Source of the DNA: Promethearchaeota archaeon
GTDB lineage: Archaea; Asgardarchaeota; Lokiarchaeia; Sigyniarchaeales; SOKP01
Assembly: GCA_016840165.1 (NCBI GenBank)
Contig: JAEOSU010000076.1
Coordinates: 64,001-128,000 of the forward strand
DNA length: 64,000 nucleotides
Reading direction: 5' to 3'
Shown: one piece after another, positions 9,169-41,258 of the stretch
Position numbering within the stretch: position 1 is the first letter of the stretch
Layout: the number at the start of each line of letters is the position of its first letter
Position numbers and translations under genes: made by a program
The notes under the pieces: model-generated
Told to the model about the DNA's origin: nothing
The model's input: the letters and a program-made list of their open reading frames with translations, nothing else
Database searches by the model: none

Positions 9169-10164
9169 ATGAGTGAAGATTATATTTGTCCTTGTCGAGA
9201 GATTGACCCTGAGCATTTTCTATCGAATGAAGAGGTCCTTGAGTTATTATCGAAAGAAAATTACAATTTTAAAGAACATGATTATTACAGGATATTCAAT
9301 TGTATCCACTGTAATGCATGTGGCACTTCTGAGGAGAGATTTTTATTAAAAGAAAAATTTCTAAAAAATGGGTATCAGATTGAAGGTTTAAATCAGATTA
9401 TTTCTAATTTTGAGAAATTTAAAAGCCCTTTTATTCATAATAAAAGTCGTGTGAAACCTATTGAGGGTATTCCTTCAGAAAGTAGTACTTTACTTTATTT
9501 AGGGTGTTTTACTACTGTCAAGACACCAAAATATGCCGAAAATATAATTAGATATTTATTAAAAGAAGAGGTTGATTTTTGCACCTTAGAGGAGGAGATT
9601 TGCTGCGGATATCCGATCCTATGTATGGGTGAGATAAGTTTTTATAATAAAATTGTAAAAGAAAATCTTCAATTATTTAAGTCCAAAGGATTTAATAGAA
9701 TCATAACTGTGTGCCCTAGTTGTTATATGGTGTTTAAAAAACATTATAGTGACCATGGAATTAGAGTAAATTACTTTACAGATTATTTAAAGCCAGTTTA
9801 TCCTAAAAAGAGGGGGAATCTTATCATTCAACATGCATGCCCCTTAAAAAATGGAGAAATTCCGGGAATAGCCGATGATCTTGAACATTTATTTAGTGAA
9901 AGTGGATATAATGTATTGAATGAAGTTCCGAGAGATTGTTGTGGATTTGGTGTAGGACATCAATTACGAGTGGATATATCAGAGGCTATCGCGATGAAAA
10001 GAATGAAAGATTTTACTGAAGAGGGCGGATACGTAAAAAATTTAGAGGGTGAAAATAATTTCATTACAAGTTATTGTCCAGATGCTTTCTGGGTCTTGAG
10101 AGCTTATGGTCGAAAGCAAAGAATTCCCTTTAAAGTTAAGGATATGTGCGATTTATTATTATAA
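9169..10164 (+). CDS. CCG-domain Fe-S protein (HdrD/GlpC-like), paralog 2
   Basis: CIHCNAC, YLGC, ICCG, CPSC, DCCG; collinear with the upstream paralog. Confidence 0.87.
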   Translation: MSEDYICPCREIDPEHFLSNEEVLELLSKENYNFKEHDYYRIFNCIHCNACGTSEERFLLKEKFLKNGYQIEGLNQIISNFEKFKSPFIHNKSRVKPIEGIPSESSTLLYLGCFTTVKTPKYAENIIRYLLKEEVDFCTLEEEICCGYPILCMGEISFYNKIVKENLQLFKSKGFNRIITVCPSCYMVFKKHYSDHGIRVNYFTDYLKPVYPKKRGNLIIQHACPLKNGEIPGIADDLEHLFSESGYNVLNEVPRDCCGFGVGHQLRVDISEAIAMKRMKDFTEEGGYVKNLEGENNFITSYCPDAFWVLRAYGRKQRIPFKVKDMCDLLL

Positions 10165-33785: not shown

Positions 33786-34196
33786 ATGAATTTTGAAGAT
33801 GAGGAGGAAGAATTCGATGAAGAATTCGATGAAGAATTTGATGAAGATCTGGACGAAGATTTGGATGAAGAGAGAGATTTTGAATTAAAAAAACCAACTC
33901 CAGAAGTTCTTGCAACTAAAACTCCAAAAGGTACCATTAGCTCGGAAGCAAAAAAGATTTCCGTATATCTAATGTCAACAATAGGGCCGGGGGAAAAGAA
34001 ACAAAAATTATTAATATATACTGGATATCAGATTAAGGATATCAAGGAAACAGTGGCTAATATATTTGGTTTAGACCCCTCTGATTTTCATTTATCTACA
34101 GGAGGAGTCACAATGGAGGAGGGATTAACGCTAAATGATTATAATGTTAATGATGGAGATGATATTTTGTTAATTCCGGCTAGCACTGCTGGCTAA
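33786..34196 (+). CDS. Ubiquitin-like protein 1 (acidic N-tail, mature C-terminus -PASTAG)
   Basis: Beta-grasp pattern IKDIKETVA..FHLSTGG..LNDYNVNDGDDILLIP ending Ala-Gly-stop; lies in the E1/E2/JAMM/RING locus. Confidence 0.85.
   Translation: MNFEDEEEEFDEEFDEEFDEDLDEDLDEERDFELKKPTPEVLATKTPKGTISSEAKKISVYLMSTIGPGEKKQKLLIYTGYQIKDIKETVANIFGLDPSDFHLSTGGVTMEEGLTLNDYNVNDGDDILLIPASTAG
33807..33866 (+). repeat. 12-bp tandem repeat x5 encoding (EEFD)3(EDLD)2
   Basis: gaagaattcgat gaagaattcgat gaagaatttgat gaagatctggac gaagatttggat. Confidence 0.85.
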
Positions 34197-34241: not shown

Positions 34242-35024
34242 CTATTTTTTATTTCTTGGAATTAAAGCAATTTCATCATCATCATCAATATTATACTCCC
34301 TTATAAGGGAATTTTCATGTAATAATATTCCGCCAGAGGAGAGTAAAAAATCATCGAGATTATATCCAAAAAATACTGCTATTCTTTCTTTAAGATCTCT
34401 AATGAAATCTGATGATTCGATTATTAAAATTTTAGTTTTCTCTCCTGGTTCAACTAAGGACCTAACATAAACTCGTATTCTGTCTTGCATCCCTATTTTA
34501 TTTTTTGGGGGATAATAAATAATCTTTTTATTATTCTTAGCTTCCAACATAGATTCAATTAGGACTTTCCTCTCTTCAGCATCATAATATAATAATTCTC
34601 TGAGGAAAAATATCTTATCCATTTTAGATAGATCTAATATTTCTATCTTCTCTAATTCTTCTGGAATAAATAATGAAAAAATAAACTCATGAAGTTTTGG
34701 TATTTCTTCATATGAATCATCTGAATCAGCATAATCATCAATTAGAGGCATTGCTTCGAAATAATCATTTAAAAAAGCACTAGAAATTCCTTTATGTGGT
34801 TTTCTATTCAAAGGAATCTTCTTCTTTAAAATTAAATTATCGGGTTCTTTTTTAGATTCTATGATTGTATAGAGAGTAACACTAGGTAAAACAGCAACAC
34901 TACTTATAATTAGGATTGAATTTAGAAGGATATGATCTATATTAAAGAAAATAAAGAGAAGATAGATTAAAATAAAGAATATATAGAGAATGATTGTACC
35001 AAATAATAGATGCTTTAGTTTCAT
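34242..35024 (-). CDS. Two-TM membrane protein with C-terminal Ubl domain lacking a terminal Gly
   Basis: C-terminal PGEK..IRDLKE..FLLSSGG..EYNIDDDDEIALIPRNKK aligns with Ubl1 and Ubl2. Confidence 0.8.
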   Translation of the reverse strand: MKLKHLLFGTIILYIFFILIYLLFIFFNIDHILLNSILIISSVAVLPSVTLYTIIESKKEPDNLILKKKIPLNRKPHKGISSAFLNDYFEAMPLIDDYADSDDSYEEIPKLHEFIFSLFIPEELEKIEILDLSKMDKIFFLRELLYYDAEERKVLIESMLEAKNNKKIIYYPPKNKIGMQDRIRVYVRSLVEPGEKTKILIIESSDFIRDLKERIAVFFGYNLDDFLLSSGGILLHENSLIREYNIDDDDEIALIPRNKK

Positions 35025-35109: not shown

Positions 35110-35785
35110 TTATTCCTCATTGATTAATTTTCTAACCTCAAAATATTTGTCTTCATTTAAGCAAAATAATACTATTCTATTTTGTCTTCTAATGGTTATC
35201 AGTTGTAATTTTTGTAAAATCTTAAAATACTTTTTTATAGAATTATAATTTCTTTTTAGCCCATTTGCAATTTCGGTGATTTTAAATTCTTTTAAAGAAT
35301 TTTTCTGTATGAAACTTATTATTTCTTTGACGATACTTTGTTTTAAATAGAAATGTAATTCATCAAACTCAGGATTTAAATCAAATTTGAAAAATACTCG
35401 TTGATTTTCAAATTTTTTAGATCTTACAAATTGAAATTTCTCTAAACAAGATAAATGCCATAATACTTGATTACTTCCAATGTTTATTGCTTTCATAATC
35501 TCATTAATATTTGATGGTGTTTGTTTAATTAAATTAAAGATTTCATTTCTTACTGGATGTTCTATGATGTTATTCTTCATCAATTTAGTCCCAGGAATAA
35601 GGATTTTTTTTTTTAATAAGCTTCTTTATGATTTTTTCGATGCTATTTTTATTTATATTTGGGTTTAACTTTACCCTATTACTAATGAATAAGACGATAT
35701 CTTCAATTGAAAAGAATGGTTTCTTTTTTAGATATTCTTTAATTAAGTCAAAAACAATATCTTCGGCATAATTGGGGGATTTCAT
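35110..35785 (-). pseudogene. Winged-helix (ArsR-like, double wHTH) regulator split by a frameshift in an A11 tract
   Basis: ORFs 35585-35785 and 35110-35583 fuse in frame if one A is removed from 35604-35614 (..IKKKILIPGTKLMKNNIIEHPVR..); HTH NEIMKAINIGSNQVLWHLSCLEK. Confidence 0.7.
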
Positions 35786-36042
35786 TAGTGTATACTTCTA
35801 ATATGTTAGATGAAATGAATTTATTAATGATTTCTTTTATCTAAAATGTTATCTTTCAGTTCATATTAATTACTAACCATTTATTCAATTTATAAGTATA
35901 TTTTCTTAGATTAATAATGGTATTTATGTCTTTATTCAAGAATTTTCAAAATCATTCCAATTGGTTTTATAATATCATTTTAGCATGTTCTTAGTAAGTT
36001 TAAAAATAAACTTTCAAAAAATAAAAAAAAGAAGTGAAAAAA

Positions 36043-36378
36043 ATGAGTTTTGATAATGATTTTGATGAGGAATTGGAACCATTAAAGTCTAAAACGCCTA
36101 CAAGTAAAACACCTTCAGCAGGAAAGAAACTGACTCTATATTTTATGTCAACTATCGGTCCTGGTGAAAAGAAAGAAAAGTTAACCGTAAATGATGCTAA
36201 TCAAGTCAGTGATATTAAAGAAACCTTAGGAAATTTATACGGTCTTGACCCTGATGAATTTCATTTATCATCTGGTGGAGTTACAATGGATGAAAGTAAT
36301 CAATTAAAAGATTATAACGTAAATGATGGAGACGACATTCTTTTAATTCCTGCGAGTACGGCGGGTAGACTTATATAA
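36043..36378 (+). CDS. Ubiquitin-like protein 2 (pro-form, -PASTAG|RLI)
   Basis: Close paralog of Ubl1 (MSTIGPGEKK, DYNVNDGDDILLIPASTAG) with a 3-aa extension; directly upstream of E1. ATG 36043 (GTG 36034 in the track). Confidence 0.87.
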   Translation: MSFDNDFDEELEPLKSKTPTSKTPSAGKKLTLYFMSTIGPGEKKEKLTVNDANQVSDIKETLGNLYGLDPDEFHLSSGGVTMDESNQLKDYNVNDGDDILLIPASTAGRLI

Positions 36379-36445: not shown

Positions 36446-37678
36446 GTGATAGGATTGGAGAAAAATTCAGATTTTTTTGGTAAAGAACTGTCAGTGGAGG
36501 AACGAGACTTATATGACCGCCAATTTCGCCTTGAAGGTTGGTCACAAAAGGTAGTAAAAAATTCGAGAGTCCTAATAGCAGGTGTAGGAGGTTTAGGTTG
36601 TGAAACTGCTAAAAATTTAGCTATGTTAGGTGTGGGTCATATCGATCTTGTTGATTTAGATATAATTGAACATTCTAATTTAAACCGACAAATACTTTTT
36701 ACTGGTGCTCAAATAGGAGAATCCAAAGCGATTGTAGCTGCTAGAAAATTGAGGGAAGTAAATCCAAATATAACTATAAAAGGGTATTCTACCTCTTTAG
36801 AACGATTAAATCCTGAAATTTATCAAGCCGTTGATATTGTGGTTGGTGGTCTTGATTCGATGATTGCTCGTTTAAACTTAAATGCGCAGTGTATAAGATT
36901 TAGAAAACCTTTAGTTGATGGGGGCGTATCTGGTTATCATGGGCATATCTATACCGTGTTTCCTTATAAAAATGCCTGCTATGAGTGTAACCCATTACCT
37001 ATTGGCGAAAGTGATGAAATGGCAGCTTGTACTGTAGTTGGAATTCCCCGGAAAAGAATTCACTGTGTTTTTAAAGGGGATATGGCTTTTAGAGAAAAAT
37101 TTGATAGAGATCCAAATCCAAAAGATATGAATGATATAAAATATATTCAAAAAGCGGCAAATGAATTAGTAAATAAACATAATTTCTTACCCGAATACAC
37201 TGAAGATGATATTGTAAAAATTATTGATAGACATGATCCAGGATTAATTACAGTTAATGCCGTTATTTCTGCTTTACAGTCTCATGAGACTATAAAGATT
37301 ATTCATTGGAAAAAAGGGCATAAAGGATTAGGAGCGCCCATACAGGATTATGTTATCTTTAATGGTATTACCATGAAATTATATCATATTGAAAAAAAAA
37401 GAAACCCAGAATGTTCTCAATGTGGAAGAAATGCTCGACGTGTTATTATAAAAATGAAAGCACAGTCACCTTGCATGAATATTATAAAAATTTTAAATCA
37501 TCATGGGTATAACTTAGAGGAAAATTTTGAACCCATTATTACACTATTGGATTTCAATGATATACAAGTTATTGATTTAGAAAAGAATGCTAGAGAAAAT
37601 GATTTACGTAATTTAGAATTTTTAATTGTAGCTGGGTTTGTTGGTGGAGAAATTTATGTAACACTAAAATTAAAATGA
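36446..37678 (+). CDS. Ubiquitin-like activating enzyme E1 (UBA2/UBA3-like)
   Basis: YDRQ, GVGGLG, DLDIIEHSNLNRQ, Zn sites CYEC and CSQC, catalytic-Cys motif ACTVVGIPRKRIHC, C-terminal UFD-sized domain. Confidence 0.92.
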   Translation: MIGLEKNSDFFGKELSVEERDLYDRQFRLEGWSQKVVKNSRVLIAGVGGLGCETAKNLAMLGVGHIDLVDLDIIEHSNLNRQILFTGAQIGESKAIVAARKLREVNPNITIKGYSTSLERLNPEIYQAVDIVVGGLDSMIARLNLNAQCIRFRKPLVDGGVSGYHGHIYTVFPYKNACYECNPLPIGESDEMAACTVVGIPRKRIHCVFKGDMAFREKFDRDPNPKDMNDIKYIQKAANELVNKHNFLPEYTEDDIVKIIDRHDPGLITVNAVISALQSHETIKIIHWKKGHKGLGAPIQDYVIFNGITMKLYHIEKKRNPECSQCGRNARRVIIKMKAQSPCMNIIKILNHHGYNLEENFEPIITLLDFNDIQVIDLEKNARENDLRNLEFLIVAGFVGGEIYVTLKLK

Positions 37679-37764: not shown

Positions 37765-38292
37765 TTGAGTTTAAGAAGTAGTCGTATTTCTCGAGATTTT
37801 GCGGGTTTAAAAAAGATGCTTAAGAATGGAACCATGGTTCAATTAAAACCATTTAATCCAAAAAAAAAAAGTATTGATCATTTAGCTATTACTATCAGAG
37901 GTCCCAAAGGAACAGCTTATGCAGGGGGTCTTTTTAAATTAGAAATGAAATTCCCTGCTCAATATCCTAAGCAGCCTCCATTTGTGAGACTCCATACACC
38001 AATTTGGCATCCAAATTTTTGGCCTAAACCAAGTGAATATAAAGGACAAAGAAATATCTGTTTAGCATTAGTTGATCCTTCTTTAGTTGGTAAAAAAGGA
38101 GGTTGGAGTCCTTCGAAAACAGCAGTCACTATAGTGCAAGCAATAATTGCTATGTTAAATACACGCGGAAAATATGTTAATCCAACAGATGTATTTAATA
38201 AAAAAGCAGCAATCGAAATGATAAAGGATCAAAAATTCTTCGAGAAAAAAGTTAAAAACCTAGTAAAGAAGTATGCAAAAGAAAAGTGGTGA
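37765..38292 (+). CDS. Ubiquitin-conjugating enzyme E2 (UBC fold)
   Basis: GPKGTAYAGGLFKL..FPAQYP.QPP, TPIWHPN, NICL, WSPS. Confidence 0.94.
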   Translation: MSLRSSRISRDFAGLKKMLKNGTMVQLKPFNPKKKSIDHLAITIRGPKGTAYAGGLFKLEMKFPAQYPKQPPFVRLHTPIWHPNFWPKPSEYKGQRNICLALVDPSLVGKKGGWSPSKTAVTIVQAIIAMLNTRGKYVNPTDVFNKKAAIEMIKDQKFFEKKVKNLVKKYAKEKW

Positions 38293-38299
38293 AAATAAT

Positions 38300-39106
38300 A
38301 TGAAAAATGATGAAATTCCTGATGATCCAATTAGAGAAGCCATTAAACAAAAAATAAAAAACAAAATCAAAAAAGAATTACTTAAAGAAATATATTCGGA
38401 ATTACAATTAGAAGAAGAAATTACAAACGAGATAACCACTGAAATAATTAGTGATCCTTTATTAGAGCATTCCGAGATCAATAAAGCTAATCTTGAACCG
38501 ATTCCTTCAGAGATCGTAGAAACTTCTGCTAGTAATGGTAAATTTAAAGCACCTATAGCTATAAATGTAAAATCCATTCTAAAAATTGCCAGTCACGCAT
38601 TAAAATATGCTCATTCAAAAATCCCAAGAGAAGAATGGGTTGAGGTTATTGGCTTACTTGCTGGAACATTTGATAAAATTCATAACGTTTTATATATTGA
38701 AGATGTTTATCCAATGGGACATGGTAATGCTGTGTATGCGGAAATTAAAGATTATAAAAATTATGTAAGAGCTTTTAAAGATATCAAAAAAAGTAGATTG
38801 TTTATATGTGGCTGGTATCACTCTCATCCATCCTATGGATGCTTTATGTCTAGAGAAGATTTAGGTACCCAATCGCGGTATCAAACATTATGGGATAAAG
38901 CAATAGCACTTGTAATTGATCCTTATCAGATAAATGGAAAATCATTGGGTTTTGAAATTTATCGTGCGAATTTTAAAAAACGAGAGTGGTTTTCTGTACC
39001 TTTTGAGATTAATGGAAATTTAGATGTGGGAATGTTACCTGAAATTTTGGATTTTATGAACCCAATTATAGAGGGGAAGGCTGCTTATTTAGAATATGAT
39101 GAATAA
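38300..39106 (+). CDS. JAMM/MPN+ isopeptidase (Rpn11/CSN5-like)
   Basis: EVIGLL, GWYHSHPSYGCFMSREDL, ALVIDP. ATG 38300 preferred over 38273, which overlaps E2. Confidence 0.93.
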   Translation: MKNDEIPDDPIREAIKQKIKNKIKKELLKEIYSELQLEEEITNEITTEIISDPLLEHSEINKANLEPIPSEIVETSASNGKFKAPIAINVKSILKIASHALKYAHSKIPREEWVEVIGLLAGTFDKIHNVLYIEDVYPMGHGNAVYAEIKDYKNYVRAFKDIKKSRLFICGWYHSHPSYGCFMSREDLGTQSRYQTLWDKAIALVIDPYQINGKSLGFEIYRANFKKREWFSVPFEINGNLDVGMLPEILDFMNPIIEGKAAYLEYDE

Positions 39107-39126: not shown

Positions 39127-40266
39127 ATGGTAAAAAAGAAAAATTTGATAATCCTTCTTTTTGTCTTAATTGGTTTTGTCCATGGGTTGATCTCAATTTC
39201 ATTAAATATTTTTCTAACTTGGGTATTTATCGGTTTGTGGATATTTTTCATAATAAAAATTTTCGAAAACATAAAACAACATCGCGAATTTAATTCACCT
39301 TATAATACGGCATTTTTTGTTATTCTTCCTTTATTTATTGGGATCTTTTATTCTATGTGGGGCTACTATACGAATTTATTTGGTGAAAATCTCTTTATGA
39401 ACTCCAATATCTATTTTAGTTTATGGAGCTTAATTTTTGGATTTCCATTTGTTTTATATGGATCTTATTCATTATATCGTTGCTTTAAAAAGTATAATGT
39501 GATCTATTTTGGGAGAAGAGCTGTAAAGGCTAAAGTGGTTGGATATCTACTATCATTCTCAATAATTTTTGGTATTATTCTTTATTGGATAATTTTTTAC
39601 TCTATTATTGAGTTTTTTAATTATTTATTAATTCCTTTACATTTCTCTTTAGATTTAAATCTTTTAATCATTTTTATATTGACTATTCTAATTCTTATTT
39701 TATTTGGATTTTTAAATCCTCAAAGACGATTATCTCCTTTAACTCGAGAATATATAGCACAGCGTACTCGAAGAATTAATGCTCTCACAAGACCTAGTAT
39801 TCAAAATCAGAGAGTAAAGACAACTAACCGATCAACTTCTCCCTCAACTAGAACAGTGACCCGATCAACTACTACTTCCTATAGATCCTCAAGGATCACT
39901 CCAAAATCTAAAAGCCATGCGAGGAGAACAACAAGAACCACTGAAACTAAAAAGACAAAAACTAATCTAAAAATTCGAAATATAAATGCTTATAAGCCAA
40001 AAGCGGCATTTCTGACAGAAGAAGATTTCAAATGCATTTTCTGTTTTAATTTGCCAAAATTTCCCGAAGATAAAGGTAGAGGGATCATTTTATGCCCTAA
40101 TTGTAGATATCCTTCCCACGCAGATGAGTTTAAAGACTGGTTAAAAACTTCAAATTTATGTTCACGTTGTAGCGCACCCATTCCCTCTAGCTTTAGAAGA
40201 AATCCAAGAATTATTAGTATAAAAAATTATATTTCTATCTATAAACAAATTTTAAAAAAAACATAA
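39127..40266 (+). CDS. Polytopic membrane protein with C-terminal RING-like domain (candidate E3 ligase)
   Basis: About 6 TM segments, an S/T/R-rich linker, then CIFC-x16-CPNC-x4-H-x2-E-x3-W-x6-CSRC. Confidence 0.78.
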   Translation: MVKKKNLIILLFVLIGFVHGLISISLNIFLTWVFIGLWIFFIIKIFENIKQHREFNSPYNTAFFVILPLFIGIFYSMWGYYTNLFGENLFMNSNIYFSLWSLIFGFPFVLYGSYSLYRCFKKYNVIYFGRRAVKAKVVGYLLSFSIIFGIILYWIIFYSIIEFFNYLLIPLHFSLDLNLLIIFILTILILILFGFLNPQRRLSPLTREYIAQRTRRINALTRPSIQNQRVKTTNRSTSPSTRTVTRSTTTSYRSSRITPKSKSHARRTTRTTETKKTKTNLKIRNINAYKPKAAFLTEEDFKCIFCFNLPKFPEDKGRGIILCPNCRYPSHADEFKDWLKTSNLCSRCSAPIPSSFRRNPRIISIKNYISIYKQILKKT

Positions 40267-40298: not shown

Positions 40299-41258
40299 TT
40301 ATTTATTTGTTCCAATAATTCTTCTTAATTCTCCAACCGTAGTTTTTAATTCTGAATATACATTATGGGGATGGATGGATTCATAACTTTCAATAGTGAA
40401 TTTAATTTTAGACTGATCCTCCAAATTTGGAAAATCACTCAGGATGAATCTTTTTGCCATTTGTCTGACTACATCCTCAGAAAAAAGTGGATTTAGATGA
40501 GCTGTTCGAACTAGCCTTGCCTCTTCTGGTCTTTTTAGAACTGACTGCATTTTTCCCGACATTGAACCTTCTATGATATCAATTATATCTAAAACATCAA
40601 TTTTATGATTGTTTAAATCTTTAATCTGCACAATAATAGTTCCTTTTGATCGCTGATTATGAGAACTAAAAGGTAAGATATTGAGGAGTTTCTTAATATC
40701 TTCTTCCCGCAGATTGATATCTCTTCTATTTTTAATAATTTCTTCAGCATACTCTTGGCTCATTTCTTTTGCACAAGGGCAAACCGTCATACCAACGGCA
40801 CTTGCCCCAATATAGTAGTTAAAATCAATCTCTCCTGATTCATCCTTACGGGCTTTTACAAAAGAACTTATATCATATGACTTTTGGATATTTCTTTGTT
40901 GTTCATCTTTAGTTTGAACGACTATTTTGCCTTCAAGTTTTACATAGACTTTTCTGGTATAAGGATGCTTTTTGAGAAGTTCTCGTGCAATTCTATCTCC
41001 TACCACTTCTACAGATGGTGTTGGTTTGAAAATTACCTCATTTATGATCTCTTCGATAGTTTCAGAGGTGCGAGACATATGAATCCCTCGTTGTTTGGCA
41101 GGAAGAGATATCAGTGCAGAGATCTTAGGATAAAAGGAGTAGCGCTTATTTTCTTGAATGATCTCGACTTTTTTTTCGACACCAACAATCCCAACTTTAT
41201 CGATAGGAATATCGATTTTTGAGCCAGAATTCTGTAAATCTTTTTTAAAGTGGCTAAT
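40299..41258 (-). CDS. mptA: GTP cyclohydrolase IV (MptA/FolE2 family); probable ATT start
   Basis: GMTVCPCA, SHNQR, LKRPEE, NPLFSED, ESIHPH. The conserved N-terminus (DLQ..IDKVGI..LPAKQRGIHMSR) lies upstream of the track ATG 41078 in the same frame. Confidence 0.9.
   Translation of the reverse strand: MSHFKKDLQNSGSKIDIPIDKVGIVGVEKKVEIIQENKRYSFYPKISALISLPAKQRGIHMSRTSETIEEIINEVIFKPTPSVEVVGDRIARELLKKHPYTRKVYVKLEGKIVVQTKDEQQRNIQKSYDISSFVKARKDESGEIDFNYYIGASAVGMTVCPCAKEMSQEYAEEIIKNRRDINLREEDIKKLLNILPFSSHNQRSKGTIIVQIKDLNNHKIDVLDIIDIIEGSMSGKMQSVLKRPEEARLVRTAHLNPLFSEDVVRQMAKRFILSDFPNLEDQSKIKFTIESYESIHPHNVYSELKTTVGELRRIIGTNK

Follow-up and report, generated by a model that had tools for sequence, protein, structure and literature searches.

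Archaeal operons encoding ubiquitin, E1, E2 and RING proteins are considered to lie at the root of eukaryotic ubiquitylation, and the E3 studied in them so far is small and soluble. To our knowledge, the design of a membrane-bound ubiquitin-type ligase has so far been tied to eukaryotes. The locus described here raises the question of whether an archaeal operon of this kind could encode a ligase at the membrane. It lies on contig JAEOSU010000076.1 of a Promethearchaeota archaeon (assembly GCA_016840165.1; GTDB lineage Archaea; Asgardarchaeota; Lokiarchaeia; Sigyniarchaeales; SOKP01), of which positions 64,001–128,000 of the forward strand were analyzed; this whole stretch of 64,000 nt is called the window, and window positions are counted from its first base. 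The gene in question (39127..40266, + strand, including the stop codon; ORF list, ATG start) encodes a protein of 379 amino acids, here called TM-RING, which we consider with a probability of roughly 0.7 to be a membrane-anchored RING-type E3 of an archaeal ubiquitin-like system.

The C-terminal zinc domain

The RING core of the protein (C303–C348; 40033..40170, + strand), delimited by the translation, an AF2 pLDDT of 96, fold matches and an alignment with RNF24, reads CIFCFNLPKFPEDKGRGIILCPNCRYPSHADEFKDWLKTSNLCSRC and contains the motif C303-x2-C306-x16-C323-x2-C326-x4-H331-x2-E334-x3-W338-x6-C345-x2-C348. Seven of the eight Cys/His ligands of a cross-brace are in place with correct spacings, and the sixth is Glu334 (codon 40126..40128, + strand), assigned to this position by the RNF24 alignment and a family census. 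Ligands 3 and 4 are separated by x2 and ligands 4 and 5 by x4, which is RING-C2-like and not the x1/x2 arrangement. Trp338 (codon 40138..40140, + strand; Trp in 224 of 225 family members, with a modelled E2 contact) is the central-helix Trp four residues after ligand 6, the E2-contacting residue in RING E3s. A word search found 370 homologues of the window protein, and the family comprises 124 clusters at 50% identity. Neither W338 nor any of the eight ligand positions varies among 30 homologues; therefore, the motif is not due to chance. The family is labeled only "hypothetical protein" in every source, and no model in Pfam or NCBIfam covers it.

In the full-length AF2 model, the C-terminal domain had too low a confidence to be used (pLDDT 54–73, with only weak rows in its Foldseek search), and this domain was therefore refolded alone. 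Residues 285–379, modelled from a 123-row alignment, reached a pLDDT of 96.2 and a pTM of 0.85. In this model, the C-terminal tail (residues 353–379; 40183..40263, + strand) packs on the RING core with two helices, 354–358 and 365–378 (pLDDT >90), which align with the flanking helices of TRIM/RING1B/Rad18-type RINGs. The first Foldseek match in PDB was the RING of TRIM37 (3lrq, E 3e-3, prob 1.0); further matches were the U-boxes of LubX and CHIP as well as RING1B/BMI1, HRD1 (6f98), RNF8, RNF4 and Rad18, and zinc domains of IFT-A and GATOR2 were also among them. A VIA search of 48,161 representative chains, which is independent of Foldseek, returned RINGs or U-boxes in all of its best 50 rows (Z 7.7–5.0). 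Single Z values of this size are modest, as expected for a domain of 60–90 residues, so it is the unanimity of the rows that constitutes the evidence.

Sequence profiles point in the same direction. Family profile A2 matched the RING-H2 domain of RNF24 (2ep4) with an E-value of 3.8e-5; in the HMMER alignment, ligands 5 and 6 correspond to H331 and E334, and the RING-H2 Trp to W338. With profile A1, soluble relatives are reached whose sixth ligand is His, and four of these distant His-type relatives pass the gathering score of Pfam zf-RING_2 (28.2–31.3 bits vs. 27.3). The window protein itself had no RING-family match in Pfam, even at E 0.1, and is not among the PF13639 matches in a scan of its own genome. 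On the whole, a RING/U-box fold of the C-terminal domain is supported by the predicted structure. A PHD finger and a zinc ribbon were considered and rejected in view of the fold matches and of where the Trp is located.

These results bear on an earlier note on this DNA, in which a zinc motif with Glu at the sixth ligand and a Trp was described and interpreted as a RING variant. The motif recurs exactly in the translation of 40033–40170, and the interpretation is borne out by the RING/U-box fold, the alignment of E334 with ligand 6 of RNF24 and the soluble His-type relatives passing zf-RING_2. The structure prediction and fold search proposed there give a RING/U-box and not a non-RING zinc finger.

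A likeness of another kind was observed with the C-terminal zinc domain of IFT144/WDR19, which the stretch "CPxCxYPAH..E" within 40033–40266 of the window resembles. The match had an E-value of 0.016 with the single sequence and of 0.002 with the family profile, and a Foldseek probability of 0.99 (PDB chains 8bda_I, 8bbf_A and 9a2d_F); the Foldseek matches of this kind include 9a2d_F and 8bbg_A. Relatives of the window protein also show weak Pfam matches to the zinc fingers of IFT121, IFT122 and IFT144. This likeness may reflect a shared RING-derived origin or convergence.

The membrane domain and the linker

Residues 1–195 (39127..39711, + strand) form a putative membrane domain of six TM helices, N-in/C-in, according to AF2 and a positive-inside count. 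The helices of the full-length model span residues 3–23, 26–52, 58–82, 99–121, 135–163 and 177–195, with pLDDT values mostly of 70–90. Lys and Arg in this domain are confined to the N-terminus, the loops 44–60 and 118–137 and the segment after TM6, and there is not a single one in the loops 22–27, 83–98 and 164–176. By the positive-inside rule, this distribution places both termini, and hence the zinc domain, in the cytoplasm. The pattern fits six TM helices with both termini cytoplasmic.

The membrane domain is followed by a linker (residues 196–290; 39712..39996, + strand), which is rich in basic residues, Thr and Ser and is predicted to be disordered (pLDDT 31–49). Its 95 residues include 20 Thr, 17 Arg, 11 Ser and 8 Lys, and with 25 Lys and Arg vs. 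2 Asp and Glu its net charge is about +23. Between close homologues and the window protein, the linker is the least conserved region (identity 0.38 over residues 223–288). The cytoplasmic loop 53–61 (HREFNSPxN) has an identity of 0.90 in the same comparison, followed by TM4 (0.82), the RING (0.80), TM3 (0.78) and the cytoplasmic hairpin 118–134 (0.76). Thus, within the lineage of the window, the membrane domain is under much the same constraint as the RING. In distant lineages the TM domain diverges strongly, and few of its columns reach at least 60% across 64 distant full-length clusters.

No match to the TM domain was found in Pfam or NCBIfam, and none that was usable in ESM Atlas. The VIA search of the modelled domain gave only generic helical matches, the best being a Plasmodium surface protein (Z 8.6). 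Hrd1 (9z0e_C) ranks 26th with Z 6.2 and an rmsd of 5.1 Å over 147 residues, a score level with that of many unrelated helical proteins. These search results are no evidence for or against any fold family, and there is nothing in them to support homology with Hrd1. Accordingly, of what the earlier note had said on this part of the protein, the HRD1 likeness stands as it was put there, as architectural only, because the fold search of the TM domain gave no specific match. Its count of about six TM segments agrees with the six long AF2 helices and the Lys/Arg pattern, and the basic, Ser/Thr-rich linker it described is found in the composition of residues 196–290.

Operon context, distribution and loss

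Four genes precede TM-RING on the same strand. The first encodes a ubiquitin-like protein (Ubl) ending ...STAG-RLI (36034..36378, + strand), which is syntenic in 67 of 80 loci, the rest being cut by contig ends. Next are an E1-like (ThiF) gene (36446..37678, + strand; PF00899, E 1.2e-59) and a gene for an E2 of the UQ_con type with an HPN motif and Cys99 (37765..38292, + strand; PF00179, E 9.8e-26), whose residues H82, P83, N84 and C99 are invariant. The fourth gene encodes a JAB/MPN (Rpn11-like) isopeptidase with HxHx7Sx2D (38273..39106, + strand; PF01398, E 2.3e-13), and its start overlaps the end of the E2 gene. TM-RING begins 20 nt past the JAB stop codon and, as the gene downstream is convergent, it is the last of this co-oriented run of five genes.

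A species-level genome scan yielded 136 loci, 80 of which were kept, all of them from Promethearchaeota (Asgard) records. The order Ubl-E1-E2-JAB-RING is found in 80 of 80 kept loci, as far as the contigs reach. Since the synteny extends beyond the operon, more distant lineages were examined. TM-RING is still located beside JAB, E2, E1 and Ubl in three other families (24–39% identity), one of which (L088) has a rearranged operon order, and the locus L092 (family f21) contains an 83-aa soluble His-type RING near E2 and E1 genes. Matches to TM-RING are present in 215 of 400 sampled genomes of the phylum and, within this sample, in 117 of the 134 genomes of the window's own family. Five genomes that are at least 90% complete but lack TM-RING contain only an E2 paralogue of 39–43% identity, as opposed to the 55–59% identity of operon E2s in other families; operon-type E2 is, therefore, missing wherever TM-RING is missing.

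A remnant of the RING motif was observed in one of these five, a complete 4.36-Mb genome of the same order (locus L099, G135:C1:585000-603000), where positions of approximately 9199–9323 read "LCTNCN*PQHKDEFGEWV...YSRC", with an in-frame stop and ligand 7 lost. No Ubl, E1, E2 or JAB gene was found within the 18-kb stretch around it, and the only E2 of this genome is a paralogue of 39% identity. In another record (DATKTW010000176.1), a whole Asgard operon with a TM-RING of 62% identity is filed under a "Candidatus Nanopelagicaceae bacterium" MAG; this contig was probably mis-binned under its actinobacterial label.

The surroundings of the operon in the window hold several further genes. Just upstream are a TM-anchored Ubl-domain gene (34242-35024, − strand) and a winged-helix-like gene (35110-35583, − strand), which keep their places in 67 and 60 of the 80 loci, respectively. 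A further upstream Ubl (33786-34196, + strand) has a strongly acidic N-terminal tail (MNFEDEEEEFDEEFDEEFDEDLDEDLDEE...). This tail and the basic tether of TM-RING (39712-39996) are complementary in charge, which could recruit the modifier to the ligase. On the other side, the ORF at 40299-41078 (− strand) encodes a GTP cyclohydrolase FolE2/MptA. Its Pfam match begins only at position 58 of 260, counted from the first ATG, so the annotated start is probably too far downstream or non-canonical.

Glutamate at ligand position 6

To the census of the family, 225 members with the motif contributed. Ligand 5 is His in every one of them and the Trp is present in all but one (224/225), and at ligand 6, 216 members have Glu, 8 have His and 1 has Ala. 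Those with His are the most distant relatives, and all eight are without TM segments. Conversely, every Glu form with at least 200 residues ahead of the motif has TM segments. The pairing of Glu with TM segments and of His with a soluble protein is probably one evolutionary event rather than a repeated correlation. The neighboring Asp333 is variable across the family, which makes E334 the constrained residue. It would complete zinc site 1 together with C303, C306 and H331, and our confidence in this role as a zinc ligand is lower than that in the membrane-anchored RING-type E3. Two TM-RING members have Ala at ligand 6 ("PAHADAF"; L095 in G128:C2, and P0133) with the other seven ligands intact, and the Glu side chain may thus be dispensable for the fold.

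Predicted contact with the E2 of the operon

A complex was modelled in three runs from the alignment of the operon E2, the RING alignment and two zinc ions. The median ipSAE was 0.66 vs. 0.02 for the best control; in calibration, the mark used was attained in 58 of 80 solved complexes and in 2 of 110 mismatched pairs. A score of 0.00 was obtained in one of the three runs. Agreement between the runs was at least 2% of contacts, and the partner pLDDT was at least 83. On the E2 side, the modelled interface consists of helix 1 (residues 3, 6–7 and 10), P68-K69, 108–112 and S115-P116-S117, and on the RING side of 304–308, E334, W338, 341–342, L344, S346-R347 and S349, with W338 predicted to touch E2 residues 69, 115 and 116. 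In silico, the RING is thus placed on the canonical E3-binding face of the operon E2 (helix 1 / L4 / L7). As RING-E2 complexes have already been solved, a pass of the complex model may be due to memory, and it indicates likeness and not binding.

The hydrophobic pair after ligand 1 (I304/F305) is IF in 191 of the 225 members, and about 206 of them retain R347, the residue directly before ligand 8, which is in contact with the E2 in the model. The Pro after ligand 7 is a Ser in the window protein, and only 21 members have the Pro. At the linchpin position after ligand 8, the window protein has S349 and the family has Ser (126), Asn (41), Asp (33), Arg (4) or Lys (3), so that the linchpin Arg/Lys occurs in only 7 of 225 members.

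Besides TM-RING, the same genome (G000) contains three ORFs passing zf-RING_2, whose open frames are 97, 205 and 685 aa long, and, outside the operon, a second E2 of 173 aa; the coordinates of these RING and E2 ORFs are C15:31162-31293, C6:72728-72859, C61:4873-5007 and C53:27877-28308. Given these three canonical ORFs and the second E2, TM-RING is not the sole candidate E3.

Proposed mechanism and alternative explanations

Under the favored reading as a membrane-anchored E3, the six TM helices would hold the protein in the cytoplasmic membrane with both ends inside, and a disordered basic tether of about 95 residues would carry the C-terminal RING. Two zinc ions would be bound in a cross-brace, one by C323/C326/C345/C348 and the other by C303/C306/H331 and the carboxylate of E334. 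According to the model, the RING would dock on the charged operon E2 via I304/F305, W338 and S346/R347, using helix 1 and the loops around Y67-P68 and S115-P116-S117 of the E2 as docking surface. The Ubl, ending with Ala-Gly, would then be transferred to lysines of membrane-proximal proteins or of the ligase itself. By analogy with the Caldiarchaeum system, the neighboring JAMM protease would mature the Ubl and reverse the tag. The His form of a soluble archaeal operon RING of the srfp type would have given rise to the Glu form, or vice versa, and the Glu form would be tied to the membrane-fused clade.

Evidence against a fully canonical E3 is the absence of a linchpin Arg/Lys, the Ser in place of Pro after ligand 7 and the lack of a Pfam RING match. 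RING-like domains of IFT-A and GATOR2 are structural modules and, by the same token, the zinc domain of TM-RING might be a non-catalytic RING-like module which does not activate E2~Ubl, serving as an assembly or docking element that holds the E2, the JAMM protease or a membrane-tethered Ubl protein at the membrane. The missing linchpin residue, the scores below the Pfam RING cut-offs, the match to the WDR19/IFT144 zinc domain (E 0.002 with the profile, 0.016 with the single sequence) and the IFT-A and GATOR2 chains among the Foldseek matches would all be in line with such a role. Nevertheless, we regard it as unlikely, as precisely the E2-contact residues are conserved: the hydrophobic pair after ligand 1, the Trp (224/225) and R347 (about 206/225), which touches the E2 in the model. 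Further, the complex model uses the canonical E2 face, and the soluble RING near E2 and E1 genes in L092 is of the operon type which is active in Caldiarchaeum (PMC5654768). The domain might even be another treble-clef finger, PHD or zinc ribbon, on a membrane protein that takes no part in ubiquitin-like transfer, since its C4-H-x-C2 spacing (x2, x4, x2) resembles the PHD pattern and a weak Pfam match to Zn_ribbon_15 (E 0.048) was found. This is highly improbable: the 50 best VIA rows and the top Foldseek rows contain no PHD or zinc-ribbon chain, the operon linkage is conserved, and a Trp at ligand 6 + 4 is a hallmark of RING-H2/RING-v (PMC5240574).

A different reading keeps the ligase activity but assigns another role to E334. 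Site 1 would hold its zinc with three protein ligands and water, or would in part resemble a U-box, and the invariant Glu would owe its conservation to contact with the E2. The Ala at ligand 6 in two members fits this reading, as does the list of modified RING types, which contains Asp, Ser/Thr and Gly but not Glu (PMC5240574). Residue 334 also touches P116 of the E2 in the complex model; however, ligand 6 adjoins the L7 loop of the E2 in any RING, and hence this contact does not discriminate. The spacing between ligands 5 and 6 is exactly x2, the same column is His in the soluble relatives and Cys in RNF24, and C303, C306 and H331 are still invariant, all of which makes a Glu outside the metal site rather doubtful in our view.

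The TM domain of the preferred membrane-anchored E3 may do more than anchor the protein. TM3/TM4 and the conserved loops on the cytoplasmic side might recognize or extract membrane proteins, TM-RING might be a prokaryotic forerunner of Hrd1/Pex-type ligases, and, in the archaea from which eukaryotes descend, tagging might have been coupled to the quality control of membrane proteins or to ESCRT-type sorting. We offer this as speculation, with little likelihood attached to it.

Comparison with known systems

The closest working likeness of TM-RING is the archaeal operon RING E3 srfp, to which it is homologous. The srfp of Caldiarchaeum has E3 activity; its ligands 3/4 are out of register, it contains an extra Cys, and R69 at its linchpin position mattered for function (PMC5654768). 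In Asgard operons, the srfp type is represented by the Helarchaeial RING E3 (bioRxiv 10.1101/2023.07.25.550441). Like srfp, TM-RING is encoded in an archaeal Ub-E1-E2 operon, its ligand 3/4 pair (C323-x2-C326) is out of register relative to eukaryotic RING-H2 and makes use of an extra Cys, and it shows the central Trp as well as a hydrophobic residue following ligand 1. Also, soluble members are within reach of profile A1, including the one near E2/E1 genes in L092. In contrast to the small and soluble srfp, however, TM-RING is a protein of 379 aa in which six TM helices are followed by a tether of 95 aa; it has a Ser instead of R69 at the linchpin position and, unlike the soluble relatives found here with His, a Glu at ligand 6.

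With HRD1/gp78, and also TRC8 and Pex2/10/12, TM-RING shares the order of domains, with the TM bundle first and a cytosolic RING after it, a likeness of architecture only, and the RINGs of HRD1 (6f98) and Pex proteins are among the fold matches of the C-terminal domain. It differs from HRD1/gp78 in that no sequence match of the TM domain was found, the RING is located at the very C-terminus and it carries a Glu as ligand 6. The stretch "CPxCxFPA...E/Q...CxxC" is common to TM-RING and the C-terminal zinc domain of IFT144/WDR19, but the latter lacks the His of ligand 5 (Leu or Ser) and ends a beta-propeller/solenoid protein. We know of no link between the IFT144 zinc domain and an E2. Two modified RING types also come close: plant RING-D has an Asp at ligand 5 or 6 and a spacing of 10 between ligands 6 and 7, and RING-C2 has a Cys at ligand 4 with x2 and x4–5 spacings (PMC5240574). 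TM-RING is like RING-D in having a carboxylate at a late ligand, Glu instead of Asp, and shares the x2/x4 spacing with RING-C2. Both types are eukaryotic, however, and no listed type has C4 together with His as ligand 5 and a carboxylate as ligand 6 (PMC5240574).

Implications

In a literature search covering the text of published work, no account of Asgard operons with a RING fused to a membrane domain was found. The gene described here joins an operon RING to a six-helix membrane domain that is conserved. With its invariant Glu at a zinc position, the family offers a natural test of the ligand chemistry that a RING tolerates. If TM-RING is active, ubiquitin-like tagging at the membrane predates eukaryotes, and this would bear on how ERAD-type ligases and ubiquitin-ESCRT cargo sorting originated.
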